From NCBI GenBank assembly GCA_964621085.1, contig CAZUKY010000002.1, positions 22,637 to 86,636 on the forward strand: a stretch of DNA of 64,000 nt, written 5' to 3'. The DNA is from an uncultured Gammaproteobacteria bacterium. GTDB lineage: Bacteria; Patescibacteriota; Patescibacteriia; JACQRZ01. Within the stretch, counting starts at the first letter, position 1, and every line of letters begins with the position of its first letter. A model generated the notes under the pieces. It was given only the letters and a program-made list of their open reading frames with translations. It made no database searches and was not told the DNA's origin. Below are positions 2,671 through 58,070 of the stretch, piece by piece. Position numbers and translations under genes: made by a program.

Positions 2671-3381
2671 ATGAGCACGAGTCTGAAAAAAGTTTCATTG
2701 ATCATTGCGACAGCATGGCTGATCGGAGGCTTTTCGTTTGTGTCTGCAGAGGAAAGTCCGTCGGGTAGTGGCACATTTTTTTCATCGGACGGCAATTTGG
2801 AACCTTCCAACCCTTATGAAAACGATTACCAATCAGGAGTTCCTTCGACTTTGCAAAGCGCTCCGCTTTCCAATCCTTCACAGGTAGGACAGCTGAACTT
2901 TTGTCCTGGCGCCGGTACCACGCGGGCCGATATCACGACCGAGCAGGCATGCAACGCGTACTGCACGCATGAGAACAACTTTGAAAGGATGGAGGGCTTC
3001 GGTCTGAACAAATCGAAGTATGCCGACGTCGACTGCTGCTGCTGGAAGGGAAGCGTCACATCGCAACCCAAAAAAGTCACCTGCAGCGAGCTGCCGGATG
3101 GCACGTGCGAGCTTGGCAATACATTGAAAGGAGACGTCGCCAAGACGCCGCAGGAGTTTGCGGGGCGGATCATCAAGAACTTCTTGGGGATCGTCGGCGT
3201 GCTTGCACTCGTTATGTTTATGTGGGGCGGCGCGCAGATCATGATGTCTCGCTTCGGCGGCGACGATAAGACAAAATACCAGCAAGGCATCCAGACGCTT
3301 GTCGGCGCAGGCGCGGGCCTCGTTGTGATCTTTGGCAGCTACGCGCTCGTCGAGTTTCTCTTCTCCCGCCTCTTGTCGTAA
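2671..3381 (+). CDS. VirB2/TrbC-like pilin-family protein, paralog 3, with N-proximal Cys-rich insert
   Basis: Signal peptide MSTSLKKVSLIIATAWLIGGFSFVSA. Cys-rich segment (CPGAG..CNAYCTHEN..DCCCWKG..CSELPDGTCELG) precedes the core IVGVLALVMFMWGGAQIMMSRFGGDDKTKYQQGIQTLVGAGAGLVVIFGSYALVEFL. The ATG sits 1 nt after the upstream stop, consistent with translational coupling. Confidence 0.55.
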   Translation: MSTSLKKVSLIIATAWLIGGFSFVSAEESPSGSGTFFSSDGNLEPSNPYENDYQSGVPSTLQSAPLSNPSQVGQLNFCPGAGTTRADITTEQACNAYCTHENNFERMEGFGLNKSKYADVDCCCWKGSVTSQPKKVTCSELPDGTCELGNTLKGDVAKTPQEFAGRIIKNFLGIVGVLALVMFMWGGAQIMMSRFGGDDKTKYQQGIQTLVGAGAGLVVIFGSYALVEFLFSRLLS

Positions 3382-3384
3382 AAG

Positions 3385-3417
3385 TATCCCCATTCCGTCC
3401 GGAAAATGTGGTATACT
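3385..3417 (+). promoter_or_regulatory. Putative promoter: TATCCCCA, 16-nt spacer, extended -10 TGGTATACT
   Basis: Read directly: tatcccca(3385-3392), 16 nt, tggtatact(3409-3417), upstream of paralog 4. The same bipartite motif recurs at 5884 and 13113. Confidence 0.45.
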
Positions 3418-3468
3418 AACCATTACGTGAATAACTTTTTAAGCAGAGCCTTTGGCTCAATCGATCGT

Positions 3469-3855
3469 ATGGCACTTCGCAGGCTTTTCGCAGCCCTCTC
3501 TCTGGCCGGCATTCTCCTCGTTCCCGCAGGCGTGTTGGCGCAGGATCTCGACCCGTCGGATCCTGAAACGTTCCGGAAATACAATCCGCCCGTTTCTTCG
3601 AACGTCGAGACGGATATCGGCATGATCGCGAAAAACATCATCGGCGTCGTTATGGGTTTCCTTGGACTGTTCGCCGTGGTCATCATTATCATTGCGGGTT
3701 TCAAGTGGATGACGGCGGGCGGTGATGAGAAAAAGGTTGAAGAGGCGAAAAACCAACTCATCCAAGGCGCGATCGGTCTTGTCATCATCATCGCCTCCTG
3801 GAGCATCGCCTTTTTCGTCATCGAGCAGATCGCAAAGGTTGTCGGTGGGCAGTAG
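3469..3855 (+). CDS. VirB2/TrbC-like pilin-family protein, paralog 4
   Basis: Start chosen at MALRRLFAALSLAGILLVPAGVLAQD (signal peptide), downstream of the predicted promoter. Core is IIGVVMGFLGLFAVVIIIIAGFKWMTAGGDEKKVEEAKNQLIQGAIGLVIIIASWSIAFFVIEQI. Confidence 0.5.
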   Translation: MALRRLFAALSLAGILLVPAGVLAQDLDPSDPETFRKYNPPVSSNVETDIGMIAKNIIGVVMGFLGLFAVVIIIIAGFKWMTAGGDEKKVEEAKNQLIQGAIGLVIIIASWSIAFFVIEQIAKVVGGQ

Positions 3856-3874
3856 GGCATAAAACAACCTCCCC

Positions 3875-4324
3875 ATGCTTTTTCAAAAGACAGCATTCCT
3901 CTTTTTCGCGTGGAGCGCTGTCTTTTTGTTTTTCTTCGCCCCCATCAGCGGCACATTTTCGTTTGTTGATGCAGCCGAGTCTTCATCCGGGCCCGTGAAT
4001 TTGAATGTCTCCGGCACGGGCCTGGAAGACACCGGCAAGGCGGCTGGATTCAAAGAGGGGCAAAACCAATTGCCAGGGTATATCGGCACCGTCCTCAAGG
4101 CATTTTTTGGCGTGTTGGGTATTATCTTCCTCGCCTTGACGATCTATGGCGGCCTGCGGTGGATGCTCTCGCAGGGAAACGACACCGAAATCAAAGGCGC
4201 CCGCGATACGATTATTAGCGCGGTTATCGGCATTGCCATCGTTGCAGCATCCTATGCGATTACAGACTTTGTCATCGACCAGCTTGTAAAAAGCGGGGTA
4301 AAACAGGAGATTATCGGCGAGTGA
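3875..4324 (+). CDS. VirB2/TrbC-like pilin-family protein, paralog 5
   Basis: Hydrophobic N-terminus. Core is FFGVLGIIFLALTIYGGLRWMLSQGNDTEIKGARDTIISAVIGIAIVAASYAITDFVIDQL. Confidence 0.5.
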   Translation: MLFQKTAFLFFAWSAVFLFFFAPISGTFSFVDAAESSSGPVNLNVSGTGLEDTGKAAGFKEGQNQLPGYIGTVLKAFFGVLGIIFLALTIYGGLRWMLSQGNDTEIKGARDTIISAVIGIAIVAASYAITDFVIDQLVKSGVKQEIIGE

Positions 4325-4325
4325 T

Positions 4326-4724
4326 ATGCAAATCCTTTCTTCCATCATTTCTCGTGGAGCCGTGTTTGTGGGCGTATTCTTGCCGGCAACGGCAGTTTTT
4401 GCGGACAATCCTCCTGCAAACACAATAAAAGGAAATCTGAAAGAGAGTGCTAGTAGCGTATTTTCGCAAAGCGAGATTGCTGTTGTCATCGGCTCGATCG
4501 TCACTGCGCTTCTTGGAGTTCTGGGTGTCGTTTTTTTGGCGCTGTTGATCTATGGCGGCTTTCTGTACATGACTGACCTGGGCGATGAGAAGCAGGCGGC
4601 AACAGCAAAGAAACTGATCACGAATGCAACCATCGGGTTGGTTATCGTTGCAGTCTCGTTCGCGGTGACGAAGTTCGTGCTGGATAGCATCGGCGGGGCT
4701 GCCGGAGTAAGTGGTAGTTTTTAA
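4326..4724 (+). CDS. VirB2/TrbC-like pilin-family protein, paralog 6
   Basis: Signal peptide MQILSSIISRGAVFVGVFLPATAVFA. Core is LLGVLGVVFLALLIYGGFLYMTDLGDEKQAATAKKLITNATIGLVIVAVSFAVTKFVL. Start lies 2 nt after the upstream stop. Confidence 0.55.
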   Translation: MQILSSIISRGAVFVGVFLPATAVFADNPPANTIKGNLKESASSVFSQSEIAVVIGSIVTALLGVLGVVFLALLIYGGFLYMTDLGDEKQAATAKKLITNATIGLVIVAVSFAVTKFVLDSIGGAAGVSGSF

Positions 4725-4732
4725 GACCGTAT

Positions 4733-5317
4733 ATGGCAGAAATAAAGAAAAGAACAGTAACGCGTGCTCGTACGGGCCGCAGCGGTCAGGCAACACGAAA
4801 GCCGCGCGTCGCGGCTCGTCCTGTGCGTCGGAAGCGGCCCGCGATCTCGGCGGAGAATATTCCACAACTCGAAGCGGTCATCATAGAAGAGGGGAGAAGT
4901 GCAGAGCCTGGCCACATCATCTTTATGCAGCGCACAGGCGTCGTTCTCAACCGTGCGTTTAGCGTCACGACGGCGACAGTCCTTTCCCTTTCCCTTATGC
5001 TGGGTGGCATGACAACGTTCGCCGAAGGACTCAAATTTAGTGACGTGCAAAACAATGTCGGCGCCGAACTTGATCTGGCGACAGTCATCGCGAATATCAT
5101 CAACGTATTACTTGGTTTACTGGGTGTCGTTTTTGTGTTATTTGTTATCTATGGCGGGTTTCTCTGGATGACAGACAAGGGCGATGAGAAGCAGGCAGAG
5201 CACGCGAAAGCCGTCCTGAAAAACTCCACCATCGGCGTTGTCATCGTTGCGCTTGCCATGGCGATTTCCAACTTTGTGATCAGCACTCTGGCAACCAAGG
5301 TCTTTACAGGCGAGTAA
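4733..5317 (+). CDS. VirB2/TrbC-like pilin-family protein, paralog 7 (possible internal start at 4925)
   Basis: Core is LLGLLGVVFVLFVIYGGFLWMTDKGDEKQAEHAKAVLKNSTIGVVIVALAMAISNFVISTL. The first 64 codons are strongly basic and atypical. The Met at 4925 (MQRTGVVLNRAFSVTTATVLSLSLML) would give a signal-peptide-like start. Confidence 0.45.
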   Translation: MAEIKKRTVTRARTGRSGQATRKPRVAARPVRRKRPAISAENIPQLEAVIIEEGRSAEPGHIIFMQRTGVVLNRAFSVTTATVLSLSLMLGGMTTFAEGLKFSDVQNNVGAELDLATVIANIINVLLGLLGVVFVLFVIYGGFLWMTDKGDEKQAEHAKAVLKNSTIGVVIVALAMAISNFVISTLATKVFTGE

Positions 5318-5370
5318 GACTTTCGTACGCTTTTTTTCAAAATAGCTATAATCTCAATAATTTTGATCAT

Positions 5371-5811
5371 ATGAAAAAAGCTATTGCACTTTTCGGCGCA
5401 ACTGCTGCGATCTGCTCGCTTCTTGTGCCGGTTGCCGTTTTCGGTGCCGAAACGACTGTTTCTGGTTCGCTCGGCGGATCGACCGCCCCAACTGGAATAG
5501 GACAGGCGCTCCAGGGCGGCGCAACCGCTGAACTGGAGAAAGAGGACCTGTTTAAGACAAAGACCGACTTCATCACGATTGTTGCCAATATTATCAGTGT
5601 TATTTTGGGCTTCCTCGGACTGATCCTGGTCGCCTTCATCATCTATGCCGGCTTCCTCTGGATGACGGACAACGGCGACGAGAAACGCACCGAAACAGCA
5701 AAGAATATTCTCCGCAACTCGATTATCGGCCTCATCATCATCGTGGTAGCGTATGCGATTTCAAACTTTGTCGTGAGTACGCTGGCAACTGACGTCTTGA
5801 AGCAGCAGTAA
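5371..5811 (+). CDS. VirB2/TrbC-like pilin-family protein, paralog 8
   Basis: Signal peptide MKKAIALFGATAAICSLLVPVAVFGA. Core is ILGFLGLILVAFIIYAGFLWMTDNGDEKRTETAKNILRNSIIGLIIIVVAYAISNFVVSTL. A TATAAT -10 lies at 5347-5352 upstream and a terminator follows downstream. Confidence 0.55.
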   Translation: MKKAIALFGATAAICSLLVPVAVFGAETTVSGSLGGSTAPTGIGQALQGGATAELEKEDLFKTKTDFITIVANIISVILGFLGLILVAFIIYAGFLWMTDNGDEKRTETAKNILRNSIIGLIIIVVAYAISNFVVSTLATDVLKQQ

Positions 5812-5832
5812 GGAAGGCAAAAAGAAAGTAAA

Positions 5833-5861
5833 AGAGCGTCTGCGTACAGACGCTCTTTTTC
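5833..5861 (+). terminator. Rho-independent terminator closing the pilin-like array
   Basis: agagcgtctg / cgta / cagacgctct 10-bp stem followed by a T-run (ttttc). Confidence 0.7.
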
Positions 5862-5883
5862 AGTTGCGCCTTTTGCGCAAGGT

Positions 5884-5919
5884 TATCCCCATGAATAGAT
5901 ACCGAAAGATTGGTATACT
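5884..5919 (+). promoter_or_regulatory. Putative promoter: TATCCCCA, 19-nt spacer, TGGTATACT
   Basis: tatcccca(5884-5891), 19 nt, tggtatact(5911-5919). Lies about 35 nt upstream of the tail-fibre-like gene start. Confidence 0.45.
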
Positions 5920-5954
5920 TGAGCATATAGTGAGCGGCATTCGCCTGAACGGCG

Positions 5955-8900
5955 ATGCGGCATTTTCTCACATACCCCATGCCATCTCAATTTTCCAAAA
6001 GAGGATGGGCGCTCCTTACTGCAGTCGGAGCGATTTTTGCGTTGCTGACTGCAACCGCCTCGTCTACCTTCGCCCAACCCAAAAGCACCGAGGGTCCCAG
6101 CGCGACGCTCAATGAGCTGCTCGAGGATGAGACGCTCAAGAAGGTTATCAATCGCGGCGCGACCGATCAAAGCCGCAACGATGCGAGCGAGTACACGGGC
6201 CCGATCATCTTTGGGGGAAGCCTGGAGGTGCGCGGCGGGTTAAAGGGTGTACCAGACTCAGCCGATCCGAGTGATCCGAAGAAAAACAAGCTTTTGCTGC
6301 AAAAAGACGGCGGGAACGTCGGAATTGGAACGGCAACGCCGATAAACGCAGCGTTGGAAGTGGTTAAGGCGGGGGGCGTACAGGGACGGTTTGCGTACGA
6401 CGCCGATCGCTATATTGATATTATTGGGAATGTCGGCGTTAAGCTTCGCTCGGCAGACAGTCAGAACAACCCCCTTGAGATCGTAAAGGAGGGAAAGGGC
6501 GAGTTGGTTTTCAAGACCGGCCTCAATGGTGCAACAGCAGCCCGACTGATAATTCTTCAGGATGGCAACATTGGCATCGGGACGGCCGATCCGAAAAACA
6601 AACTGACGATTGGCTCAAGCAACAAGATTCAAGAGACGAAAGGGCTGGGCTTAGGCGCGGATCAGAATGTTGTCGAGTTGGTGCATTCAACGTACGGAAA
6701 CGGCTACGGATCAAAGCTCTACGGCCGCGATTTCGGTAATGGAGGGACGGGTCTTGCCATCGCTACGCGCGGAAATACGGGAACATGGACAGACGCCGTT
6801 ACGATCCGCGCAGATGACGCGACCGGCGGAAAGAACGGTAACGTCGGCATCGGCACGATTTCGCCGAATGCCGCACTTGCTATTTTTCGGAACGGCGTGA
6901 ATGCTGCGATCGACCTTGGATCGAAAGGCGAGAACGGCAACTATTGGTCGTTACGGCATGATGGCAGTGATGACAGACTCGCATTTTGGTTCAAAGATGG
7001 CGGCGATAAGTTGTCGCTTGGCAAAGACGGCGTGTTGTCTGGCAATGCATTCTCATCCCTTGCGAAGCAGTACGACTGGGTATCTTTGGGCGCGCGCACG
7101 ATGACGAGTCCCCAGCTTGCCGGCATTCCGCTCTGCGGCGCAAGCAACTTCAACAACCCTCTCGAACCGATTTGCTATACCGGCAGCGGCTCGAACTACG
7201 AGTTCAAGGAGCGCCAGGGCGTCGCCCATCCGAATACAAAACAGAAGGATGGCACGATCGCAACTCACGCACTTACTGCCGAGCGAAAGATCGCGATCGG
7301 TCTTCCTGGCTCGCAACAGAACGCTCTGTTGAACCCATCGTTGGAAATCAATCAGCCCTTCTACAGTCGCATCTTCCTGGGCGCGACGCAGTACCAACCA
7401 GAAGCCCAGCACGTGAAGATGGTCGTGGACGCCCGCGGCGACGGCCGCCTGGGCGGTGCGAACATGGGCCAGATCGGCACGATCTCGGGTCATCCCCTGA
7501 GCCTTTTGACAAATGACAGGGAACGCCTGCGCATCAGCGAATATGGCGGCGCAGAGATTTTTGCCTCGGAAAACAACACCAACGCTCTGGTCGTGAACGG
7601 CACGGTTCGCATCAAGAAGGTCGGTAACGAGCACGGCGGCTTGTATGTTGACGGCCCCGCTCAATTCCGCAACGGCATCACCTTCCCGCAGCTCGATGCA
7701 AATGGCAATCCAACCGCAACGAACCTCGCGTATATCAATCAGGCCGGCGACGCGATGTTTAGGAACCTACAGGTTAACGGCACCCTCACTGACAAGAGCG
7801 GCAATGAGTTTAAGCCCATCTGGTCTGGTGACGCAGCAAAGGCGTATCTTGCGAGCGGATTCGAAAACGCATCGGTCGGTATCGGTACGAATGATCCGAA
7901 GGCGAAGTTGCATGTGGAAGGTGATAATGGTCTTATGCTATCTCGAGCTGGCAACCAGACCTTGGGTGGAGGCCGTATAGGGCTTTTAGTCGGCTCCATC
8001 CTGAATGTTATTCAAAGCGCGGGTACTGGAAATTTGCATATATCCGGCGGCCTTGTCCCTGGTTCAGATGATCCTGTTCGCACTTCAGTAATTCTTCAGC
8101 CTACGGATGGTTATGTCGGTATAGGAACTATGCAACCGGGAGAAATACTCGCCTTGGGGGGCTCAAAGCCAGCGATTGATCTTGGCGCGGGTACTGAAAA
8201 CAGAGAGTTGAATGCAGGAAAAATCGCCTATCAGCGTTGGAGTGACGGTCTTGATATTGTTGGGGCGGGTGGCCCTAATGTAGCTGATCGAAAGATATAC
8301 TTTTATAATGAAGGAGGCGCTTTTTTTAACGGAGATGTGCAATTGAGCGCCACTAAAACATTACGGAGCTCAGGGCGAATGCATATCACGGGTGAAGAAA
8401 ACTTATATCTACTTAATAAGGGGGGAGTTGTAGTCAGTAATGCTTGGGGAGGAAACGGCAGTTTGACTGTAGATGGCAAAACCACTATCGGAAATGCAAG
8501 CACGAGAGGACAGGTGATGCTCGAGGTGCTTGGGAAAGCAGAGATTCATGGAGACGTGAACCTCAAACTCAGTAGCGCGAACAATCCGCTTGCGAAAAAG
8601 GGCTCGTATCTTGCCTACGATCCAAAGGTACAAGGTTTCGATATTGCAGAAAAATTTTCAACGGACTCCGATGTTGAGCCGGGGGATGTACTTGTTGCTG
8701 GTAAGAAGTCAAACACATTGACTCTATCCTCGAGACAATATCAAAAAGGCGCGATTGGCGTTGTTTCCACATCACCCGCTATCGTTTTTGAAGGAGGTGA
8801 GATAAAACTTGCCGCAGAAGCGCGGTTTTCGAAAGGGAAAAATCCCCCAGTAGCACTTTCAGGGCGTGTTCCAGTAAAGGTTACACTCGAAAATGGCCCG

Positions 8901-9131
8901 ATTCATCCTGGTGACTACCTCACGGCTTCATCAAGAAAGGGGTATGCGATGAAGGCAACCGAACCCGGCCCCATAATCGGCATCGCGCTTGAGTCCTATA
9001 CTTCGAGAACGTCAACAGAAAAGATCATGATGTTCGTGAATACTTCGGAAGGAAATACAGAACTGGTCACCCAGGAGTTATTGAAGCTTCGCAAGGAACT
9101 GGACGAGGTGAAGAAAAAGCTTCGAAAATAA
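5955..9131 (+). CDS. Phage tail-fibre-like secreted protein with C-terminal intramolecular-chaperone-like domain
   Basis: Signal peptide (..MPSQFSKRGWALLTAVGAIFALLTATASSTFAQP). The alternative start at 5979 is in frame. Five copies of the x-V-G-I-G-T-x-x-P-x-x-K/A-L motif (GNVGIGTATP, GNIGIGTADP, GNVGIGTISP, ASVGIGTNDP, GYVGIGTMQP) typical of tail-fibre-domain proteins. The C-terminus (PVALSGRVPVKV..GPIHPGDYLTASSRKGYAMKATEPGPIIGIALESY) resembles peptidase G2 / S74-type auto-processing chaperone domains. Terminal coiled coil is ELLKLRKELDEVKKKLRK. Confidence 0.55.
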   Translation: MRHFLTYPMPSQFSKRGWALLTAVGAIFALLTATASSTFAQPKSTEGPSATLNELLEDETLKKVINRGATDQSRNDASEYTGPIIFGGSLEVRGGLKGVPDSADPSDPKKNKLLLQKDGGNVGIGTATPINAALEVVKAGGVQGRFAYDADRYIDIIGNVGVKLRSADSQNNPLEIVKEGKGELVFKTGLNGATAARLIILQDGNIGIGTADPKNKLTIGSSNKIQETKGLGLGADQNVVELVHSTYGNGYGSKLYGRDFGNGGTGLAIATRGNTGTWTDAVTIRADDATGGKNGNVGIGTISPNAALAIFRNGVNAAIDLGSKGENGNYWSLRHDGSDDRLAFWFKDGGDKLSLGKDGVLSGNAFSSLAKQYDWVSLGARTMTSPQLAGIPLCGASNFNNPLEPICYTGSGSNYEFKERQGVAHPNTKQKDGTIATHALTAERKIAIGLPGSQQNALLNPSLEINQPFYSRIFLGATQYQPEAQHVKMVVDARGDGRLGGANMGQIGTISGHPLSLLTNDRERLRISEYGGAEIFASENNTNALVVNGTVRIKKVGNEHGGLYVDGPAQFRNGITFPQLDANGNPTATNLAYINQAGDAMFRNLQVNGTLTDKSGNEFKPIWSGDAAKAYLASGFENASVGIGTNDPKAKLHVEGDNGLMLSRAGNQTLGGGRIGLLVGSILNVIQSAGTGNLHISGGLVPGSDDPVRTSVILQPTDGYVGIGTMQPGEILALGGSKPAIDLGAGTENRELNAGKIAYQRWSDGLDIVGAGGPNVADRKIYFYNEGGAFFNGDVQLSATKTLRSSGRMHITGEENLYLLNKGGVVVSNAWGGNGSLTVDGKTTIGNASTRGQVMLEVLGKAEIHGDVNLKLSSANNPLAKKGSYLAYDPKVQGFDIAEKFSTDSDVEPGDVLVAGKKSNTLTLSSRQYQKGAIGVVSTSPAIVFEGGEIKLAAEARFSKGKNPPVALSGRVPVKVTLENGPIHPGDYLTASSRKGYAMKATEPGPIIGIALESYTSRTSTEKIMMFVNTSEGNTELVTQELLKLRKELDEVKKKLRK

Positions 9132-9232
9132 CAACCACTCATCTAATCCGCAGCATAAGGCGAAGCGATGACGTGATCCGTATATGAGCAAACGGAATCA
9201 GCGCTCTCGCTTCGCCTCTTCAGTAGAAAGGC

Positions 9233-12200
9233 ATGAAACCGTCAGCGCAAAATAATATATTCGCCAAGGGATTCCTCGGAATCCTTTTTGGCGTTTTAGC
9301 TACTGGTATTATCGGTTTCTTTCTCAACGTGGACCCAATTCAGGCCGCTTGGTGTATTACAAAAGGGGAAAAAACGGACTGCATCCCGAACTTCAATTAT
9401 ACAAGCGGCACGCCCGTCAATCAAACCTATCAAATCGAAGGAAAGACAGCTGATCCGAATAAGAAGTGGACGATAACGAACCAGCGTTCCGGCTATTGCA
9501 ATAATAATGTCTGTGTCAACGATCTTGGTCTGCCGAAATTTGAGATGGTTTCCCGAGGAGATGATAACGATACGGATGATAAGATCCAAATACGCCTGAG
9601 GGTCCAGGGCAACACCGGAAGCTATTGGTATGTACGAAAAAATAGTGGATACAGTAACGATGACGGGTACCCGAATACCGGAGATCCCCAAGAAGATCGA
9701 GGTCTTTCAAGGATCCAATACGATGGTATTCAAGGATTAAGAGGCGGGAATTACGCGCAAAATCTTTGTCCCGGGGATAATGGCAGTAGCTGGGACGACA
9801 AATTCGATGTCACTCAGGCAGGCGGATATTTTACTGCGGAAGCACCAGGACCGCGTACGTGCTATGACTCAAAGCTCGTCACTGTAACACATAAGGCGCC
9901 GCAGCAAGTTACAGACCCGAAACATCAGGACACATGGCGAGTGTATGTGTATAGCCCCCAGGATGGGATGATGCACTATACAGATCACACAGACGCTGGT
10001 ACTTATCCGAATGGGTGGAATGCCTATTGGAATAACTGCTGGAAGGGATGGCCATTAAATTGTGAAGGTCGCTGGGAGCAGCCACGCTATCCGGAGTGCG
10101 GCTGCGGCAAAAATGACCCCACTGAAAAGCTCTGTATAAGTTACGGCGTGGCCGGCTTACAATCAAACAATAACTGCTACGACTTCTTTAAAAAGCACAT
10201 CGGCTTTGGGACGAAAACAGAAAATTCTAAAACAGTGACAGAGATGAGGTACCGCGAGGTTACCACGGTGCCCCGATTTAGTCTCGCTACGCTCAACAAT
10301 AAAACTGCATATGCTCCCCATAGAGAAGGTGCGGTATGGCCTGACAATACCTACTTACTCTACTATGATACAAAGAATTTAAATCGAACGGACGGGGCAA
10401 AAAATAAGGTAAAGGCCGTTCAGAACGAGCAGCCGGTTTTTTCCGATCTTAACAAGTGCATTTTTGACCGTAAATTTCTTGAAGTAACACATCATGGTTC
10501 GTACACTGATTATGTTGTTCAAGCGGAAGGACTTCTCGGCAACAGGTTCATCGGATGGCTTTTGTTAAGCCGCGATGAACAAAATGCTATAAAACAAAAG
10601 ATTCTTACGCATGATAAAAGGTTCTACGACAGATCTATAAAAGACGCGCAAAATGAGGAACAAGTAGGGCTGGTACTCATGAGTTTTAAAGCCACCGATG
10701 CATTCAAAAATGACGTCATCAATTCCAAGTTACTAAAAGAGAAGGAGTTTAACGTCATATTCAAGGGAGTATCGCAAACCGTCCAGGCGGCTACCGAAGT
10801 CCCCAAAGAAAAAGATGAGGGCATTGCATGTCGCGCACAACTGCCCTCAGAGTTCGGCATGACCAGTACATATACGTACTTTACTGGTCCAGCTTCAATA
10901 CCGCCTGTTGAGATTCGTTCGTTTCGGGCGACAGCGGTCGGTCCGGATAGTGACTTTGTCGGCGAGACAACACAAGAGCTTACAAGTATTGGAAGCGGCG
11001 CTAATGTTCTCCCCGACCCAACTAATCGATTTTCGTCTGCGCGTGCTGACCTGAGTGCTGGCGCGGGCGAAGTATTGGATCTGCAGGCATACCAGGATAC
11101 CGTCAATCTCAGACTGGAGTGGCAAACTCCCTTTGCCGGCCGGGTACGGATTTTTCAAAAAGATGAGCGGCATGCGACGGCGACGGATCTCAGTCAGTTG
11201 GCGTGTTTGGGTAGATGGGGGGACATCATTGACAGTAATGACCCATGCCCGGCAAGGGGAGAAGTAACATCTGTACGGGAGCTTACGGTTGAGGGACTTC
11301 AGAGCAATAAGAACTATACGTTTTATATCGTCGTCGAAAATAAGCGCGGCGACAGCACCGCGCTACAGCCGACTCAGTGGGCTACAGCCGCCAGACTCGA
11401 CGTTACTGTCCGGCCGGCACCGATTGTCGTCACGAGCGCAACCGCGAAATACGTGAAAGGAAAGGAGAACTGCAAGAGTAATGCATTACCGGGCCAGACC
11501 AATACTCCGACCGAGTGCGCGGAAATTACCTGGAAAGTCGATGGTAGACCGACAGAGATAGTTCTTAAAGCGCCGAAAGGATGGAATAGGACAGTATGGA
11601 CAGACCATACATTCGCTTCGCACTCCTACACGTCAAACGGTGATTTTGACAGATATTTTCCTATTCATACAAGCGAAATCAATCGTTATCGCTCAAATTT
11701 TATCCTCATTGCAAAACGCGGCGATATTACATCGGCCGAGTTTCCTTTTGAGCTTCGAGGCGTGCCGCGCGATCCTATGACAATCGCGGCAGAAGGATGG
11801 AAGGATGGCAACAATGTTCGTGACAAGTCTCTTTTTGAGGCGATTCTCAATACCGACTGCGATGAGTGGTGGCCAGGTTTAGATTTGATATGCAGAGGAA
11901 CGACATTTAGCAGTATTTTTAATATCGCTCGTGAGTCAATATCGTCATCGCTCGCCGGTGCACTGGCAGTAGTGACTGGAGGTGCCGGCGCACTCCTTAA
12001 GCCGATTGTCGATTTTGTTCTAAGGGTTGTTGAGCCGATTGCCTTTGGATTGGTTGGTATGATAGGAAATTTAGTGCAGGCGAACAACGAGAATCTTATT
12101 GACTGGAAGAAGGACATTAATTGGCAGCCATTTCTCGGTTCCTTCGGACTGAGTTTCGCAGTCAATTCATTTACCGGCGTGCTTCAGGCGATCTTTGGAA

Positions 12201-13069
12201 AATGTGCGGCAGCGCCCCTCGTTGGTGCAATTCACCAGGTTATTGATCTTGTCGGCACGCTCCTCAGAATCGCTGGAATTAATTTAGGCTGTCCGGATGG
12301 TGAAGAAAATAGCTGCGAAATGGGAGCAGATATGGGGAAGACAATGGGAATAATTGCCGGTGAAACAGTTTATTATGCAGTAACCGGCGATAACTCTTGG
12401 AAGCCAGAGGTCTGCCCTGGTGAAAAACCTCCGGAAGAGGAAGAAGATCCGTGTACTCCGAAGCCAGGCGAACCGTTCGATTACGCGAGATCGCAAGAGT
12501 GTTTTGGAGAGAAGTATCTGCCCCAACGCTATGGATGCAACGAAGAAAATAAGTGCGTGCCCGCTGAAGCCGGTACCTTTGCTGATCCGTTATGCAGTAA
12601 CACATGCGATGTGTCAAAAATTGTCGAGAAGAAGGTAACGGAAATAGTAAAAGAAGACACAAAATCAATATTTGACTGCTCGGGTACTGTGGATGGAACC
12701 GAAGTCGGTCAAGGTTATGGCGGTGAGCGATATGCTAACGAATACCAGTATAGAACGCGCTCAAAGAAAGCGGTTGCCGATGCGCTTATGTCAGCATATT
12801 ATGTTGCGACGTGTGGTAAATTTTGCCTGAGAAAGGACGCGGCTCTTAGTTGTTCTGAGGATCTCTACAACAATAATAAAAACAATTTCGATTCAATATT
12901 TAATACCGCAGATTCGTATATTGATGACAAAAATAGACGGAATCTAAGTACCAAGGTGCATGATAATCTGTTCCGTGATACGTTTGATGGTCTCATGAAA
13001 GAGGCAGCTTCATGCGGCATTAAAGATGTTACTAGGTTTATTCCCGTCCCCTGCGCATTCGCACAATAA
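9233..13069 (+). CDS. Large Cys-rich membrane-anchored hypothetical protein (1278 aa)
   Basis: N-terminal TM helix (FAKGFLGILFGVLATGIIGFFLNV). Many Cys throughout. Internal Gly/Ala-rich hydrophobic segment (AGALAVVTGGAGALLKPIVDFV..FGLVGMIGNL). Visibly AT-richer than flanking genes. No family recognised. Confidence 0.5.
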   Translation: MKPSAQNNIFAKGFLGILFGVLATGIIGFFLNVDPIQAAWCITKGEKTDCIPNFNYTSGTPVNQTYQIEGKTADPNKKWTITNQRSGYCNNNVCVNDLGLPKFEMVSRGDDNDTDDKIQIRLRVQGNTGSYWYVRKNSGYSNDDGYPNTGDPQEDRGLSRIQYDGIQGLRGGNYAQNLCPGDNGSSWDDKFDVTQAGGYFTAEAPGPRTCYDSKLVTVTHKAPQQVTDPKHQDTWRVYVYSPQDGMMHYTDHTDAGTYPNGWNAYWNNCWKGWPLNCEGRWEQPRYPECGCGKNDPTEKLCISYGVAGLQSNNNCYDFFKKHIGFGTKTENSKTVTEMRYREVTTVPRFSLATLNNKTAYAPHREGAVWPDNTYLLYYDTKNLNRTDGAKNKVKAVQNEQPVFSDLNKCIFDRKFLEVTHHGSYTDYVVQAEGLLGNRFIGWLLLSRDEQNAIKQKILTHDKRFYDRSIKDAQNEEQVGLVLMSFKATDAFKNDVINSKLLKEKEFNVIFKGVSQTVQAATEVPKEKDEGIACRAQLPSEFGMTSTYTYFTGPASIPPVEIRSFRATAVGPDSDFVGETTQELTSIGSGANVLPDPTNRFSSARADLSAGAGEVLDLQAYQDTVNLRLEWQTPFAGRVRIFQKDERHATATDLSQLACLGRWGDIIDSNDPCPARGEVTSVRELTVEGLQSNKNYTFYIVVENKRGDSTALQPTQWATAARLDVTVRPAPIVVTSATAKYVKGKENCKSNALPGQTNTPTECAEITWKVDGRPTEIVLKAPKGWNRTVWTDHTFASHSYTSNGDFDRYFPIHTSEINRYRSNFILIAKRGDITSAEFPFELRGVPRDPMTIAAEGWKDGNNVRDKSLFEAILNTDCDEWWPGLDLICRGTTFSSIFNIARESISSSLAGALAVVTGGAGALLKPIVDFVLRVVEPIAFGLVGMIGNLVQANNENLIDWKKDINWQPFLGSFGLSFAVNSFTGVLQAIFGKCAAAPLVGAIHQVIDLVGTLLRIAGINLGCPDGEENSCEMGADMGKTMGIIAGETVYYAVTGDNSWKPEVCPGEKPPEEEEDPCTPKPGEPFDYARSQECFGEKYLPQRYGCNEENKCVPAEAGTFADPLCSNTCDVSKIVEKKVTEIVKEDTKSIFDCSGTVDGTEVGQGYGGERYANEYQYRTRSKKAVADALMSAYYVATCGKFCLRKDAALSCSEDLYNNNKNNFDSIFNTADSYIDDKNRRNLSTKVHDNLFRDTFDGLMKEAASCGIKDVTRFIPVPCAFAQ

Positions 13070-13112
13070 AAAGAGGAGCTCTAGGGCGGAGCGCTGATGC
13101 GGTGAATGAACC

Positions 13113-13148
13113 TATCCCCACAACAAACAGAACAGGGAGTGGTATGAT
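13113..13148 (+). promoter_or_regulatory. Putative promoter: TATCCCCA, 19-nt spacer, TGGTATGAT
   Basis: tatcccca(13113-13120), 19 nt, tggtatgat(13140-13148). Lies about 70 nt upstream of the giant protein gene. Confidence 0.45.
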
Positions 13149-13217
13149 AGAAGTGCCGTTCTTATTTGAACGGCAGGGCGTTTACCGCCATTTTAGGCAA
13201 CGTATATCAAGAGGCGC

Positions 13218-16200
13218 GTGCCCGTATTTTTGAGACATCATCGGCTGGTTTTCGCTGCCGGGGTTTTGGCCCTTGGCGGGTTTTTTGGCGTTCCCGTACT
13301 TGCGAATGCTCTTAGCGTCATGGTGGCAACGCCATTTCGAATCAGTACGCCTATCAACGGAACGGTGGTCACACTGCCGGAAGCGAAAGTGACGGTTCCA
13401 ATTACTGTTGTGTCGCCAGGCGACCAATATGCTGGCGTTACGGTTACCGCAGAGATCCGTTCGGCAAGCGGTGATGTGCGGACGCTTCCGATGAGTGTTT
13501 CATCGACCGGTGCAGCCGGAACGACATTTTCTGCGCAGTGGACTGCCACGACCGTCGGGAGCTACCTGATCACTGCGCGCGCAACGCAGTCCGGGTATAA
13601 TGACCGGGTCAGTGCGCCGGTTCGCGTGAATATCATCTCTCCGTCCGGAAACGCATCAGGGCGCATTTCCGGCGCTTTTACGCAGAGTGCCGCCAAGCAA
13701 GCCGGAAAATTCGACGTCATTCCTGGAACAGATGCAGGTGCAATTCCTGGTGACTACCGCCGGCCGCGCATTGGGCCCGTTCTGCCGCCGATCTTTGAGT
13801 TCAGTATTTCGGAACCGCTTGAACAGAAAGTGATGATGGATGTCAGTCTTTACGGCGCCGAAGCGCGAAAAGCCGCGGCAGAGAACTCGCGATTCCTGCT
13901 TGATTGGAGTGCAAATACTATTGCTCGCGAGCTGTCTGCCGGTGCACAGGAACGCATTCCGATCTATCGGAATGGCGCTGCTATTGTGCTCTCTGTTGGG
14001 CAAGTCAACCAAAATGCATACATCGATCTCTACTCCGCGCCGTACTATGACGGAGTTGCCGATGATATCGAGGATCCGATAAAATCAGTTCCCGGTTTTC
14101 AGAAACTGAAGGCCTGTCCGAATGCAGTCTCGTGCATTTTTTCTTTGGGGACAGCCAAGAACGGCCGGCATATCGTAGTCGCTCGTGTCAGTGCGAATGG
14201 CATCTCGCGCTTCTCATATCGTCTTGTCGAGGTGCGCGGGCAGAATGCGGCGCCGATTGTTGCAATGAGTCTTCTGAGCGATCAGAAACCATTTCTCCTG
14301 CCGCAAAAATTGAACATCCGAGTAGATGTGGCAGATGCTGACTCGGATCGCAATGCCGCTGGCAGCCCCATCGAGCGAGTGATTATTTTTGCGGGAGACA
14401 AAAAGATTGCCGAACTCGAAAAGCCAACACAAAATATTAATACGCGCACGGAAAAATTCAATTCTCTTTTTAAAGATCTCGATTTTTCGACGTACGCCAC
14501 ACTGCAGACGTATGCGGCCGAGTGGAAGGTTGAAAGCGGCCGCCATGACCTACGCGCGGTCGCAATCGACACCGAAGGCATGCCGTCAGATCCCTTTGTT
14601 ATTAAGGATTTCATTGCAACCGAGCGGCCGAAAGTTTCTGATCTTATCGTCGTCGGAAAGGAGCGTCCGTCGGATAGCGGTCCGTGGATCGTGCAAGAAG
14701 GAGAGGAGTTCACGTTGCAAGCAAAAGCGACAGACGACGGACGCATCGTGTCGATGGCATTTACGAGCGAACAAAAGGCGGCAGGCGGCGGATCCGCCTC
14801 GCCAGTTTCCGGTGAAGACAATCTGTATCGTCTCACCGTAAAGGATCGCGCCGCCGGCGCTGAATACGTATACGCCGGCATTGCACAGGATAACGAGGGG
14901 GTTACCAACGATCCTCTGCCGCGGATGACCGTCAAGATGAATAAGAAGCCGGATATCCGAGATCTGTCCCGTGATGCCGAGGAGTATCAGCCGAATACAA
15001 AAGTAACGCTTGCCGCACTTGCAAAGGACATCGATAGCGCGCTTTCATCCGTCGAGCTCGTTGATGCAAAGACAGGAGCCCGCATCGATTTCAAAGAAAA
15101 TATCGGCGCTTCAAAAAATACCGATTACGCCTACCGCTTCGAGTGGGTGCCGCCATGGAATGAAGATGCGAAAAATGTCGATCAGAGCGCGATGCACTCG
15201 CTTAAGCTCATCGTCCGGGATGCGGACGGCGGCGTTCGCGAGGCGACCTTCCCGACGGTGACCGTTCGCAACCGTGCGCCGTCCGTCACCAAATTTTCCG
15301 CCACAAAGGCGGTGTATCAGGATACCGAGCCCGTCGTCGTATCACTTGAGGCAATCGATAACGACAGTGGCATGAACGGCGTCACATTTGTCTTGAAAAA
15401 CACCGCCGGAACACTCAGTAAAAATTTCATTCTCAATGCCCCGACGCGGCCGGTGTCAGGCATTGATGTACGACGAGGCGGGGTGTATGAGGCCGAGATA
15501 AAAAATCTTGCGCCGGACTCCTACATCATAACGGCGATCGCTTCGGATATCGCTTCGCCCGCAAAAGCATCACCCGAACAGGTGGTGAGTGTCCGTGTCA
15601 ACGCGCCGCCGACGGCAGAAGGCCTGACGGTTTCCACTCCGCTCGTCCAACCGAACGTGCCCGCGACTTTTTCGATTATCGCGCGGGACAGCGACAGCGA
15701 CGTGAAAAGCGACAGTCGGATCGGGTCGGTGATGCTGCTGCGCGATGGTGTGGAAATCGCCGTCATGCGTCTGCGCGCTGGCAGTGGCGACACCTATGAA
15801 GCGAGCTGGACGCCGACCCTGTGGTCGCCAGACATTCCCGATCAGGCACAGCAGTATATCTCGAAAGGTTTTTCCGTACGGATCGAGGATACGGATAGGC
15901 GGCGCATCGAAAAAAAGACAGACATAACAGTAACCGTCAAGAATGATCCGCCTGCGCTTGTGCCGGATGGCAAGCAGCTGACCGAGCGGAGCGTCTATCA
16001 GAAGGGCGAGACCGTGACACTCTCGGCCGCTGTCAGTGATGCGGATAGCGGCGTTGCGCGCCTTCAGTTTTTCGCGAATGGGACGGCGATTCATACCATC
16101 GACAATCCTTCCCAAAAAGTTTCGTTCCAGTGGAAGCCGACTCCCGGAAGTTATGCCCTGACGGCAACGGCGACCGATCGCGCGAAACCGGTCAAGACGG

Positions 16201-19200
16201 CACAGTATCCGTCCGGAACCAATACGGTCGCAATCAAGGTCAACAATCCGCCGACGATCGATCGCATCGAGGTTGCGCCGAGTGCGCGCAAAACGGCGGA
16301 GTACCAGCCGAACGAACCGGTGAGCGTGACGGTCTACGCGACAGATGCGGACGGAAGCATTTCTCAGTCGGAGGTGCGCCTCATTGATGAGAAGGGAGCA
16401 AATCTCCCTATTGCGCTCAAGAAGGCAACACAAGCCGCAACAAAAGACGGCAAGGGAAACACGTATGCCTTCCAGATCGAGTGGCGTCCGACGTGGGCAG
16501 AGGATGGGGCGAATACAAACCAGTCGATGGTCTTTCCGTTCCGCGCGAGCGTGAAAGATAGCGACGGCGCGCAGCCCGAGGTTCTCGAGCAGTCGCGCGT
16601 AATAGTGAAGAACAGCGCACCGACAATTTCGGCTGCGGTAGCAAAGAGCGCGGCGAGCGACGGAAGATATTACGAGGGTGTCGACATTGCGCTTTCCGCG
16701 ACCGTGAAGGACGCCGAAGGAGAGGTTGGCGGCGTTACCTTCTATCGCGAGGAAGATAAAACGGCAATCGGCACTGGCGCGCGCGGCACGGCAGATACCT
16801 TCTCATACCTTTGGAAAAACGCGGCCGCAGGCACGCACCAGCTTTCCGTAAAAGCGATCGATAAAGCCCAACCGCCAAAGACCGCGCGGTATCCGGCAGC
16901 GGCAGGGCAGTTTATTCCGATTAAGGTGCTGGCAAAGCCGTCGATCGTATCCTTTACGGGTCCGACTCCCACCGTCGTTCATCTGAGCGGCGGAAACACA
17001 GGAACGGCGTCAATTCCGTTGGAATTGAAGGTGTCGGATCCGGACGGCATTGTGGCAAAGGCCGAGATCATCGGCAAGGGTGCGATGGCATCCGTGGGCA
17101 GCGGCACATATCGGTTGACGGTGTCGGAAACCGAACAAAAGATCCACTCCTATCGGGCGCGCCTCACCGACGCGATCGGCAGGACGTATGACTCGACGGT
17201 TGTCGCGGTGCGCGTCAACAAGCTTCCGACCGCAGCGATCGTGTCGCCGGCGGAAGCGGCAGTGTATTATCCAGGAACATCAGTCACGGTTACGATTGAC
17301 GCAGCCGATCCTGACGGTTCTGCTGACGGTGCGTCTGCAGGACCGGCAGAGAGCGCTAGATTGCGCGTAACGCATGGCGGCGCGACACAGGAATATCCTG
17401 CGCAGGCAGCGGGCGTGAACCGCTATACTGCAACCTTCAAAGTCGAGACAGAGGGATCTTATTCGCTTACGGCGATTTCCCGCGATAGAGATGACAAAGA
17501 CTCCCCTCTGTCTGCATCGCGGACGATCGTCGCGCAAAATGCAACGCCCGCAGTCAGCGATCTGAAGAGCGTGAAGAGCGTCTATCAGACCGGCGAGAAT
17601 GTAACGGTGTCACTCGATGCGCTGGATGCGGACAGCGGCATGGCGCGCGTCGAGTTCCTGTTGAACGGGAAGCAGACCGGCGGCGGCGCAATTTCTGAGC
17701 GAAAGGTGTCGGTAACAGCTGCCTCTGCTGGAAATGGATGTGCGGATAAGAATAAGAAGTGCACATATACCGCGAATTTCAGCGGCATTCCGGCTGGCGA
17801 GTACTCGGTGCGTGCGGTTGCATTTGACAAGGAGACTCCCGAAAAATTCGCAGCGACCGGAACAGCGGTATCCATGAAAGTTCACCGCACGCCGATCATC
17901 AGCGCATTCTCGGCAGGGAAGCCTCTCTATCAGAAAGGAGAGCGAGTGACTGTTTCGGCTACTGTGCAGGCGGACAACGGCATTGCGGGGAGCGGGTCGG
18001 CTAGTTTTGTGGAGTTCACCGCGAATGGCGCAAGAAAAGCAGTGCGGTATCCATCATCAGGCAACTGTTCGGCGGCATCATGCACGTTCAGCAGTGTCGA
18101 TCTCGGCGTTCTTTCGGACGGTGCGACCTATACGCTTAGCATTCGCGCCGTCGATACGGCAGGGAAGGCGAGCGCGACCGGCCAGTCTGGACAGGCAGCG
18201 ACCGCATCCGTCAAGGTGAATACGCCGCCGGCCGTTTCGGTAGCCGCAGCAGCACAGGGAAGAGATGCGGCAAATCAAGAGATCCGTTCGGATATTCCCG
18301 TAACAATTACGATTGCGCCCCGCGACAGTGACGGACAGATCGCTTCTGTGACACTGACGCAAGAGTACACGCCCTCGGGCTCATCAGCAGCGACGCGAAC
18401 CGTCGAGACGGCAACGCCGGGAAGTCGCCCTTCCGGTTGGGGGTATGACGCGCAGAGCGGAAACTTCACCCGAACGATCACGCCTGCCGCGGGATCGTAC
18501 AGCCTAACAGCTGTCACGCATGACACCGATGGCGCGCCGAGCGCGGTATCGAATACGATCGCGTTTATCGGAAGAAATGAAAAGCCCTCGATTGCGAGTA
18601 TGAATGCCAGCAAGGGCGTCTATCAGCAGGGTGAGTCGATCGGCGTTGAGGTGAAGGCGAAAGATGTTGATAGTGGCATGAAAGAAGTGGCATTTGTTCT
18701 CGGCGGTGATACGCGTGCCGTTCCAGCGACACAAGCGGCTGGCGGCGGTTGCGGTACGCGGGATAAGGAGTGCGTCTACGCGACAAGCTTTTCGAGTCGC
18801 AGTCCCGGCACCTATACGATTACGGCAACTGCTCGCGATACCGTGAATCCGCCTGGAGAGGCGGGCAGGACGGCAAGTTTCCGCGTGAATGCTGCTCCGT
18901 CCGGACGCATCTCTGCTCCCCAAACCGTCCAGATGAATGCAGGATTTACACTGATCCTGGATGCGACCGACAGCGACAGCAAATCGTCCGGTCCGGCAAG
19001 CGCATCAAATGGCATCAAGAGTGTTTCCTTCTCCGGTCCCGGCGTTGACAACGCGAGAATTGCGGTGAGCAACGTGACGGCAGGCGGCGCGCGCTACTCG
19101 TTGGCAGTTTCCGGGCAAGAGGCAGGCGGCCCCAAGTCGTATTCGGCAACAATCACAGACTGGGACGACAATAGCTTTACGACACCCGTCGCCGTTGTCG

Positions 19201-21761: not shown

Positions 21762-21772
21762 GGAGTGAATAT

Positions 21773-29496: not shown

Positions 29497-29772
29497 AAAG
29501 GAAAATAGGCACTCCAAGTCAAAAGGTCTAAAAACACTGAGTAGGGAAGTGACTCAAGAAAATATAACGAATGCATGCCGACAGATCGGGATATATTTGG
29601 GGAAAAGAGAAAATTTTATTATAAATTAAGGAATTTTTTGTGGATAAGTTGGGGATGAACCGGACGTTCCTGTTGATACCATTGGTTGTTCGCTTGAAAA
29701 TATAAGGGAAAATGGCATTTTCCGGATCATTATTTGCAAAATAAAAGCTATTTTAAATAGTCAAAATACATC

Positions 29773-37471: not shown

Positions 37472-37632
37472 ATCTCGGTATTATCCACGGATCTAAGTAC
37501 TCCATTAAACTCATTCTTCACCCGCCACCCTTCGTCGATGAATAGCACGTATTCACCTCCTTAGGCTTTATTGTTTTCGCTCGAAATTCCAGAGTCATAC
37601 GGGATGAAAATTAATGTAATGGAGTACTAGTA

Positions 37633-44186: not shown

Positions 44187-44403
44187 AGATGCTCGATCTT
44201 TAAGAATGAAAAAATCACGCCTCGGCTTCGAGTTTTAAGACTGAGGGATCTTCGTCGGGCGAAGATCCGGGCCACCGAAAGGCAACCCGCGGACAAAGCC
44301 AAAAAATGCGTGATTTTTGAGCTTTGATCAATTGTGCGTACATTATATCAAAAATGAAAAAAAGTGCAAGAGGAGAGGGGGCAAATGATAGGTCGTGCAG
44401 CGC

Positions 44404-53741: not shown

Positions 53742-53864
53742 AAAAGGGAAATTTCCCTATAATTATAATTCTTTTTAACGATCGCGCGGGTTTTGAGGTG
53801 TGGCGGACGCGTAGGTTTGCGCCAAATCATCCACAATCTCTGCCTCAAGTATAGCAAAAGTGTT

Positions 53865-56519: not shown

Positions 56520-58070
56520 TTAGAGCTTTCCTGCTTGCAATACGGGCTCCTGATGGCGTCCGGTCGGGTCGGTATGGCCGCTGTTCAGAAGCTCGCCTGA
56601 GCGGATAAGCGCATTGCGGACCTCCTCGAGTTTTGCGTTGGGGTGCGACTTCAGGTAGAGGGCCGCAGCGCCCGCGACGTGCGGAGCTGCCATACTGGTG
56701 CCGTTCATTGCGCGGGTGCCGCCGCCTTTAACGGTGGATACCACATCAACGCCCGGCGCAGCGATATCGACAATGGATCCGTAGTTGCTGAAGAGCGCAA
56801 AGGTGTCATCTGCGCCTTGCCGCGACGAGGGACCGCGGCCGCCAGGAGCGCCATCGGTGTCGGTAAGTGCGGACACGGTGATAACGGCATCTTTGTAGTT
56901 TGCGGGCGATTCGGAGTCGGCGTTCTTGCTGCTGTTGCCGGCGGCAACCACGAAGGTGATGCCCTTGTCGCGCGCGCGGCAGATCGCCTGGTGAAGCGCG
57001 TCGTTGTTGGAGTATCCGCAGTTGTTGTCAGATCCCATGCCGGATCCGCCCAAACTCATGTTCGCGACTTTGATATTGTATTTCGCAGCATTTTCGGTCA
57101 TCCACTCGATGCCGCAGAGGATCGATGACCAGTCGCCCGAGCCGTCGGATTTGAGGACCTTGATTGGGATGATTTTTGCTTCCGGTGCGACGCCGACGAC
57201 CCCGGTGCTGTTGTTCAGCGCAGCGATCGTTCCGGCGACATGCGTGCCGTGGCCGTTGTCATCGGAGGGCGCGCCGCTGCCGACGCAGTTCTTGCCCGGA
57301 CCGAGGATATTGCCGGCAAGGTCGGGATGGGACATGTCAACGCCGCTATCTAAGACGGCAACACCGATAGTCGTACCTTTATTGGCGATTCCATTTGCGC
57401 CGACGCGCTTGATTCCGTATGGAATTTGCTGCCCACCGGGCTGGCTTGGCGGTTGGGGGGTGGGAAGTGGCGCTGGCGTCGGTGCGGGAGCAGGCGGCGT
57501 CGGGCGCGGTGTCGGCTGCGGTGCGGGAGTCGGCTGAGGCTTGGGAGCGGGTGCTGGGGTTGGCGTCGGCCGCGTTGGTGTGCCCGGCCACGGATAGTAC
57601 GGGTATCCAGGATAGTACGGATATCTCGGATATCCGGGGTAGAGATAGTACGGGGGTTGCCACCACCACCAGGACGCGCGGACGGACTCCTCGCGGACTG
57701 CAGGTGTTGCCGGGGATGGGAGGTTGTTTTCCGTCAGGTCGTACGCCTGCACCGTGTAATCGCGCGTCAGGAAGGCCACGTTCGGATCGTGGCGAAGAGA
57801 CGTGATATCCGAGACGTTCGTGAGGTCGGCCGCAAAGCCCTTGAAGGCAGAACGGTACGACTCGTACGGCGTAATGCCGCGGCGTTTTTCAGTCAGTTCT
57901 TTTGTATAGGTGTCCGGCGAGGAGACAGAGTCCTTGTAGACGACAATATAACGGCCGGTCTGCAGATCTTCGGGCAGTGTCAATGCTGAAGAGGGGAGAG
58001 GAAGGAGTGAGGAAAGGAAAATTCCCAGCACAAAAGCAACCAATGGCCGCAAGATTCGGTCATGATCCAT
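56520..58070 (-). CDS. Secreted subtilisin-like (S8) serine protease with I9 propeptide and Pro-rich linker
   Basis: Signal peptide. Pro/Thr-rich linker (PTPAPAPKPQPTPAPQPTPRPTPPAPAPTP). Catalytic motifs ..VAVLDSGVD.., ..GHGTHVAGTIAAL.., ..GTSMAAPHVAGAAAL... Confidence 0.85.
   Translation of the reverse strand: MDHDRILRPLVAFVLGIFLSSLLPLPSSALTLPEDLQTGRYIVVYKDSVSSPDTYTKELTEKRRGITPYESYRSAFKGFAADLTNVSDITSLRHDPNVAFLTRDYTVQAYDLTENNLPSPATPAVREESVRASWWWWQPPYYLYPGYPRYPYYPGYPYYPWPGTPTRPTPTPAPAPKPQPTPAPQPTPRPTPPAPAPTPAPLPTPQPPSQPGGQQIPYGIKRVGANGIANKGTTIGVAVLDSGVDMSHPDLAGNILGPGKNCVGSGAPSDDNGHGTHVAGTIAALNNSTGVVGVAPEAKIIPIKVLKSDGSGDWSSILCGIEWMTENAAKYNIKVANMSLGGSGMGSDNNCGYSNNDALHQAICRARDKGITFVVAAGNSSKNADSESPANYKDAVITVSALTDTDGAPGGRGPSSRQGADDTFALFSNYGSIVDIAAPGVDVVSTVKGGGTRAMNGTSMAAPHVAGAAALYLKSHPNAKLEEVRNALIRSGELLNSGHTDPTGRHQEPVLQAGKL

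Follow-up and report, generated by a model that had tools for sequence, protein, structure and literature searches.

Patescibacteria carry arrays of VirB2-like type IV secretion system (T4SS) pilins, which comprise 2–11 pilins each and have been reported to be essential to the epibiotic lifestyle of these organisms (PMC12102498). The T4SS genes are often located near dnaA, and gene dosage near the origin has been proposed as the reason (PMC12102498). Here, we describe a short sequence element at a pilin array in a 64,000-nucleotide stretch of Patescibacterium (candidate phyla radiation, CPR) chromosomal DNA (contig CAZUKY010000002.1, positions 22,637–86,636), hereafter called the window. The window has a GC content of ~54%, and its sequence is also present in the Logan assemblies of SRR5011273. 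Its left end holds eight tandem VirB2-like pilin paralogs of the family PF18895 (T4SS_pilin), followed by the genes of giant surface proteins. The element, an 8-nt box of the sequence TATCCCCA, is found at three predicted promoters of this locus, each time in the zone of the −35 element. To our knowledge, Patescibacteria have very few regulators, and how their genes are controlled is almost unknown.

Each of the three sites consists of the box and a downstream extended −10 element (TGGTATAMT), and re-reading of the sequence located them exactly as the initial annotation had described. At site 1, the box (3385–3392, at about −39 to −32 of the predicted promoter of pilin paralog 4) is followed by TGGTATACT at 3409–3417 (hexamer 3412–3417), the predicted promoter of the operon of paralogs 4–8, and a TTG-type −35 element is missing at 16–18 nt. 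The box of site 2 (5884–5891, about −42 to −35) precedes a second TGGTATACT at 5911–5919, the predicted promoter of a gene for a 1058-aa protein. At site 3, the box (13113–13120) again occupies about −42 to −35, and TGGTATGAT at 13140–13148 is the predicted promoter of a giant Ig-repeat gene. The spacers between box and extended −10 element measure 16, 19, and 19 nt at sites 1, 2, and 3, respectively, which puts 19, 22, and 22 nt between the box and the −10 hexamer. All three sites are on the + strand, which is the coding strand here, and all are intergenic, located in the gaps 3382–3468, 5812–5954, and 13070–13217.

The genes downstream of these sites fall into three predicted units. Pilin paralogs 4–8 (P4–P8; 3469–3855, 3875–4324, 4326–4724, 4733–5317, and 5371–5811, all + strand, PF18895) presumably form a single operon, because they are tightly packed between 3469 and 5811. 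Pilin 8 is followed by a strong hairpin of 13 pairs with T-runs on both sides (5830–5859), an intrinsic terminator, and the promoter of site 2 is therefore that of an independent unit. The first gene of this unit encodes the 1058-aa fibre-like protein with GxxGIGT repeats (5955–9131, +) and the next a 1278-aa protein (9233–13069, +). The two genes are probably co-transcribed, since the 101-nt gap between them contains no promoter-like site. Within this gap, a long hairpin at 9155–9215 (GGCGAAGCG ... CGCTTCGCC) lacks a T-run and may serve processing or stabilisation. Site 3 precedes the gene of the 2847-aa giant Big_7/Ig-repeat protein (13218–21761, +). At the predicted 5′ end of its transcript, we read a hairpin from the sequence (GCCGTTC-ttattt-GAACGGC; 13155–13174, +). 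Comparable stable hairpins at predicted 5′ ends were seen in related loci (L031 8888–8915, L037 8782–8809, and L009 upstream of 8888) and may be 5′ stabilisers; those of L031 and L037 are followed by a T-run and could be attenuators.

The downstream halves of the three sites are very probably real extended −10 promoters of the sigma-70 type. At all three, a TG dinucleotide stands one base before a TATAAT-like hexamer whose second and sixth positions are A and T, respectively. As the initial annotation had recognised, this TGnTATAMT form recurs at other promoters of the window, including two that it had named, at 49457 (+) and 56424–56416 (−). Both of these are real and have TTG-type −35 elements (TTGACT and TTGCAG, respectively) at 17 nt. 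Additional ordinary extended −10 promoters were found on the minus strand at 44350 (−35 TTGCAC), 46366 (−35 TTGACA), and 53856 (HU gene; −35 TTGATA), and the −35 elements of the ordinary window promoters stand at 16–17 nt. The box promoters have at most three of six matches at the −35 position, and a scan for consensus −35/−10 pairs did not flag any of the three. The earlier statement that the upstream half is not a sigma-70 −35 element is thereby supported, with the TTG-type hexamer missing and a non-random box in its place. Near-consensus extended −10 promoters are usually active without a −35 element.

Several counts speak against chance as the source of the box. In the window, TATCCCCA occurs four times, with 0.74 copies expected and none of 100 shuffled sequences reaching four, while the bipartite combination of box and extended −10 element was observed three times against an expectation of 0.00 from shuffles. 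In only 17 of 20,000 simulated trials did 15 random 25-nt promoter-upstream stretches yield any 8-mer common to three or more of them. In this, the box has one of the properties expected of an operator, namely one word at several promoters, in similar positions and above chance. The two 19-nt spacers are identical at 5 of 19 positions, which is the random level, and no longer repeat was found around the box sites. Selection therefore acts on the box and the −10 element only, which makes a recently copied promoter segment unlikely. Such a ‘mobile’ promoter was rejected also on the grounds that the spacers differ in length and that no similarity extends through the flanks.

The fourth copy of TATCCCCA, at 2479–2486 (−), is antisense to the codons CTG GGG ATA, which encode the conserved pilin residues L-G-I, and stands outside the system. 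The near-copy GATCCCCA at 3185 (−) is likewise antisense to pilin L-G-I codons, and CATCCCCA at 56482 (−) forms the loop of a terminator hairpin. We considered an invertible promoter that would use the inverted copy at 2479, and rejected it, as the match ends at 8 nt and is a codon artefact. The initial annotation had found the box in this locus only. This holds for the exact 8-mer, which is present nowhere else in the 78.6 kb of readable genome (the window and flanking DNA), and fails for one-mismatch variants, which cluster upstream of rpoB. In the form suited to a whole-genome scan, the bipartite motif reads TATCCCCA-N14–22-TGNTANNNT; a mutated counterpart of the box would be TATGGGGA.

We propose, as a reading that has an even chance of being right, that TATCCCCA is an operator for one DNA-binding protein, placed over the −35 position of three extended −10 promoters (TGGTATAMT) that lack a −35 element, and that the leading candidate for this protein is DnaA or another reader of DnaA-box-like words. 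A single factor bound at the box would co-regulate the pilin 4–8 operon, the 1058-aa and 1278-aa genes, and the giant Ig-repeat gene, and a protein in the −35 zone would either block or contact RNA polymerase. Compared with sites 2 and 3, site 1 has the box 3 bp nearer to the −10 element, a displacement of ~100° round the helix. Given this shift, repression by steric occlusion would fit slightly better than face-specific activation. The initial annotation had offered an activator or repressor site as one of two options; this option is favoured, and the sign of regulation leans slightly towards a repressor. Its further suggestion of a regulon of surface genes is only partly supported and would hold for the pilin 4–8 operon and the two giant surface-gene units. 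It does not extend to all surface genes nearby, since the box is missing at the subtilase gene (56520–58070) and at the 1236-aa and S8/FG-GAP genes to the right of the window, and variants of the box are found upstream of rpoB.

In the other option of the initial annotation, TATCCCCA would be the −35 element of an alternative sigma factor driving a surface-protein regulon. The box does differ from TTGACA and is common to three functionally related units, and the gene of an extracytoplasmic function (ECF)-type sigma factor, the only additional sigma gene found nearby, lies not far past the right end of the window. However, sigma-70-family holoenzymes require a fixed spacer of ~16–18 nt, and the distance from box to hexamer exceeds this range and differs between sites, which a sigma −35 element would not allow; we therefore rejected this reading as very unlikely. 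Moreover, the −10 element is identical to that of the window’s housekeeping promoters bearing TTGnnn −35 elements, and the ECF sigma gene (L084) has a GTAAC-N17-CGTC promoter of its own, of the kind typical of ECF autoregulation, and a sigma-70-type promoter, without the box. The spacing is also unlike the −24/−12 pattern of sigma-54, sigma-54 and ECF promoters are a misfit in spacing and sequence alike, and no cognate sigma gene with the motif in its own promoter was found in the readable sequence. A class II-type activator standing in for the absent −35 element, as PhoB does at the pho box, would leave the promoters silent unless it is bound. The absence of −35 elements from all three promoters agrees with this, as does the position of the box at −42 to −32, where −35-replacing activators bind, and activator-dependent promoters typically have poor −35 elements. 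We nevertheless regard it as doubtful. A near-consensus extended −10 element such as TGGTATACT is usually active without a −35 element, and the 3-bp shift would put a bound activator at site 1 on a different face relative to the polymerase. The box also has neither the direct repeat nor the dyad used by response regulators, and no regulator gene was found nearby.

The box could also have no function, as a remnant of copied promoter DNA or by coincidence. The number of copies is small (three), no relative conserves the box in its exact form, and codons or a terminator loop account for one further copy and two near-copies. Against this, bipartite matches are expected at 0.00 and an 8-mer common to 3 of 15 promoters would arise by chance with a probability of about 1e-3, and the box and −10 element are perfect although the spacers between them are random in identity and unequal in length. 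The three downstream genes are unrelated, and the promoter can therefore not have been spread by gene duplication. On balance, a functionless box is unlikely. Least probable of all is that the box is the target of a methyltransferase or restriction-modification specificity for epigenetic switching of the surface genes. Loci of surface genes are common targets of such switching, a matter of general knowledge that lends no direct support here. Neither a methyltransferase nor a specificity gene was found in the 78.6 kb, no A or C of the box stands in a testable known methylation context, and its CCCC tract is too short for slippage.

We return to the operator and to the protein that might read it. 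TATCCCCA equals the E. coli-type DnaA box TTATCCACA with an A-to-C change, and it can also be written as TA followed by TCCCCA. In Caulobacter, TCCCCA is the W-box, a weak DnaA site defined by the same A-to-C change (Taylor et al., 2011, summarised in PMC4285127). All three promoter boxes contain TCCCCA, and box 2 together with the preceding T forms TTATCCCCA, one mismatch away from the DnaA box. Across the intergenic DNA of the window, TCCCCA was counted nine times against 3.3 expected. Five box-like words (TATCCCGA, TTTCCCCA, TTATCCACA, TCATCCCCA, and TATCAACA; 29586–29678, −) are arrayed in an AT-rich spacer, 115–190 nt upstream of the rpoB promoter (TTGACA 29772, TATCAT 29796). They include the only perfect DnaA box of the window, TTATCCACA at 29639–29647 (−), which lies 2 bp from TCATCCCCA. 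This spacer holds four one-mismatch variants of TATCCCCA where 0.40 are expected (P=0.0015), one of which, TATCCACA, forms part of the perfect box. We rejected a replication origin at 29.6 kb, as the GC skew keeps one sign throughout the window, genes are co-oriented across the site, and no dnaA was found.

DnaA-box-like words were also seen at promoters of other genes. The minus-strand promoter of the HU gene (53827–53856; TTGATA, then TGCTATACT) is followed ~12 nt after the −10 element by TGTGGATGA, one mismatch from the DnaA box, and TTATCCACG lies upstream of ftsK at 37481. In a related Patescibacterium (L026 3686–3760), a perfect DnaA box and TTATCCGCT stand just upstream of a TTGACA promoter that precedes a 16S rRNA gene. 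In another locus (L055 2150–2290), TTGACC-N17-TATAAT overlaps a perfect DnaA box and is followed ~80 nt later by a terminator; this may be a small RNA gene.

Further evidence comes from the pilin promoters of relatives. The nearest relatives of the pilins are found in GTDB genomes labelled Uhrbacteria, Falkowbacteria, and other Patescibacteria. An apparent excess of DnaA-like words ahead of the pilin genes taken together was dismissed as largely an artefact, because TGTGGATGA encodes the pilin residues L-W-M-T, and coding DNA was excluded from the counts of TTATCCACA words at pilin promoters. Within true intergenic DNA, 23 regions upstream of P4-type pilin genes of GTDB Patescibacteria contain 12 occurrences of TTATCCACA with at most one mismatch, compared to 1.03 expected, an enrichment of ~12-fold. 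The intergenic background of such words is 0.34 per kb, and they were found at 6 of 104 control genes. In a second, independent set of 80 metagenome loci, 15 DnaA-box-like words were counted against 5.2 expected. At the pilin promoters of relatives, the words are positioned at or just after the −10 element, in either orientation. L027 and L060 have palindromic pairs, the promoter of L043 is flanked by two perfect boxes, and L031 and L037 carry TTATCCCCA as the orthologous element where sister genomes have TTATCCACA. As dnaA is absent from all related loci and from the window, proximity to oriC is not the cause of these words.

A further reading, which we hold to be rather improbable, is that DnaA or a reader of DnaA-box-like words directly controls the pilin array and the giant adhesin genes through the W-box-like TATCCCCA, and that this logic would operate phylum-wide, with DnaA-box-like words at the transcript start of P4-type genes. 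That the reader would be DnaA itself is likewise rather improbable. A number of results weigh against an operator read by DnaA. The canonical DnaA 9-mer TTATNCACA is not matched at any site: site 2 has one mismatch, at the conserved A of CACA, and sites 1 and 3 have two. The CACA part is conserved in nearly all described DnaA boxes (PMC4285127), and the change in our box falls there. The three promoter boxes share one variant and include no canonical box. Among the AT-rich metagenome loci, enrichment concerns TTATCAACA or TTATTAACA, a word that keeps a fixed place at the predicted start of the transcript and is specific to P4-type genes. It nearly always starts with ATG, TTG, or GTG (ATG TTA ATA..., xTG TGG ATA..., encoding M-L/W-I...). 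The TTATCAACA/TTATTAACA element may thus be a leaderless mini open reading frame or a dedicated operator, either of which explains these data as well as DnaA does.

Other findings weigh against the operator as such. The bipartite motif with the exact box was found in none of 160 related loci. The closest relative of P4 (L083), encoded on a contig of 2.3 kb and 67% identical across 59% of the protein, has a canonical TTGACA-N18-TATAAT promoter and no box. The exact box therefore appears to be young or lineage-restricted. In addition, no regulator gene was seen adjoining the locus, and the readable 78.6 kb represent only part of a genome of roughly 1 Mb.

Site 1 can nonetheless be placed in a wider family of promoters. 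The paralog 4-type pilin gene (protein motif GGFKWMTAGG) has its own TGnTA...T or TGnTATACT promoter in many relatives. The element TGT[TG][AG]ATAA starts 7–9 nt after the −10 hexamer at 13 of 48 extended −10 promoters of P4-type genes and at 1 of 94 others. Its local copy, CGTGAATAAC (3426–3435, +), is located 8 nt after the hexamer of site 1, and its antisense, TTATTCACG, is DnaA-box-like. Since relatives share both the TGnTA...T promoter and the TGT[TG][AG]ATAA element, the predicted promoter of site 1 is, by this comparison, the local form of a promoter conserved at P4-type pilin genes. At the position of the box, relatives carry TTGTCT or TTCTCA, and it is the box that sets this genome apart. 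No orthologues were found for sites 2 and 3. Searches with the 1058-aa protein gave no relative among GTDB genomes and, among 5.8 billion proteins, only local matches covering 13–37% of its length. An alignment of all eight pilin paralogs was too divergent to seed a locus search, and searches of the literature yielded nothing relevant on the 8-mer or on promoters of Patescibacteria.

The conserved element, also in the form TGT[TG][AG]ATAA(C), was seen in L083, L045, L046, L094, L104–L162, and others; it reads ATGTTAATAAC in AT-rich lineages and TGTGGATAA in GC-rich ones. A start codon nearly always opens it, and it may therefore be a leaderless mini open reading frame instead of an operator in the DNA. 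In the window, a GTG at 3427 shares the reading frame of pilin 4, and the ATG at 3469 has no Shine–Dalgarno sequence. Pilin 4 may have a leaderless mRNA that begins at the conserved element.

The surroundings of the three units are those of a chromosome. Genes of the window include those of IleRS, RuvA, FemAB, rpoB, rpoC, FtsK, RecA, SSB, S6, RNase Y, ClpP, and IF-2, and an Rfam scan of the window returned three tRNAs and nothing else. Pilin paralogs 1–3 (944–2311, 2319–2669, and 2671–3381; PF18895) precede site 1. The 2847-aa gene is overlapped at its end by a 756-aa gene (21746–24016, +), which contains three direct repeats of ~200 nt (22052–23157), with the copies 22574–22773 and 22958–23157 being 99% identical. 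The ECF sigma gene and its DUF5667 neighbour are located slightly more than 1 kb beyond the right-hand end of the window. The segment from 1 to 8 kb past this end (L084 1–6930) encodes the ECF sigma factor, the DUF5667 protein, a 1236-aa protein, a TPR protein, and an S8 peptidase with FG-GAP repeats.

If true, an operator shared by a pilin operon and two giant surface genes would be among the first cis-regulatory units defined in this phylum, and TATCCCCA is a short sequence that can be tested. Should the factor be DnaA, the expression of surface structures would be tied to the cell cycle, or the state of replication initiation, in these reduced episymbionts, which need to attach to a host in order to replicate. 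DnaA binding would then also give a mechanism for the published and unexplained association of T4SS genes with dnaA.

An operator shared across promoters is a kind of element already known; the one proposed here has an unusual candidate factor that can be tested, and belongs to a phylum whose cis-regulation is essentially uncharted. Like galP1 of E. coli and the promoters common in Firmicutes, the three promoters described here combine an extended −10 element (TGnTATAMT) with no recognisable −35 element. They differ from such classic −35-less promoters in that an 8-mer is kept in the −35 zone of all three predicted promoters. In this respect, the box resembles operators that replace or cover the −35 element, such as the pho box for PhoB and repressor sites over the −35 position, which share its location (−42 to −32) and likewise serve several units. 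Unlike these, it is a single asymmetric 8-mer without repeat or dyad, and its spacing varies by 3 bp.

As regards DnaA boxes and DnaA as a transcription factor, a parallel is seen upstream of rpoB, where a perfect box and CCCC variants are arrayed 2–3 bp apart in one orientation, as weak DnaA sites are in their arrays. The three promoter boxes stand alone, unlike this array. In contrast to the DnaA boxes of origins, they are located at promoters of surface-protein genes and not at an origin, their change falls in the conserved CACA, and DnaA binding to them is putative. With its eight tandem PF18895 paralogs, the locus resembles the VirB2-like pilin arrays surveyed in Patescibacteria (PMC12102498). 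It differs from the reported association in having no dnaA near the array. The word ‘promoter’ is absent from that survey, which proposes gene dosage and not DnaA binding (PMC12102498).

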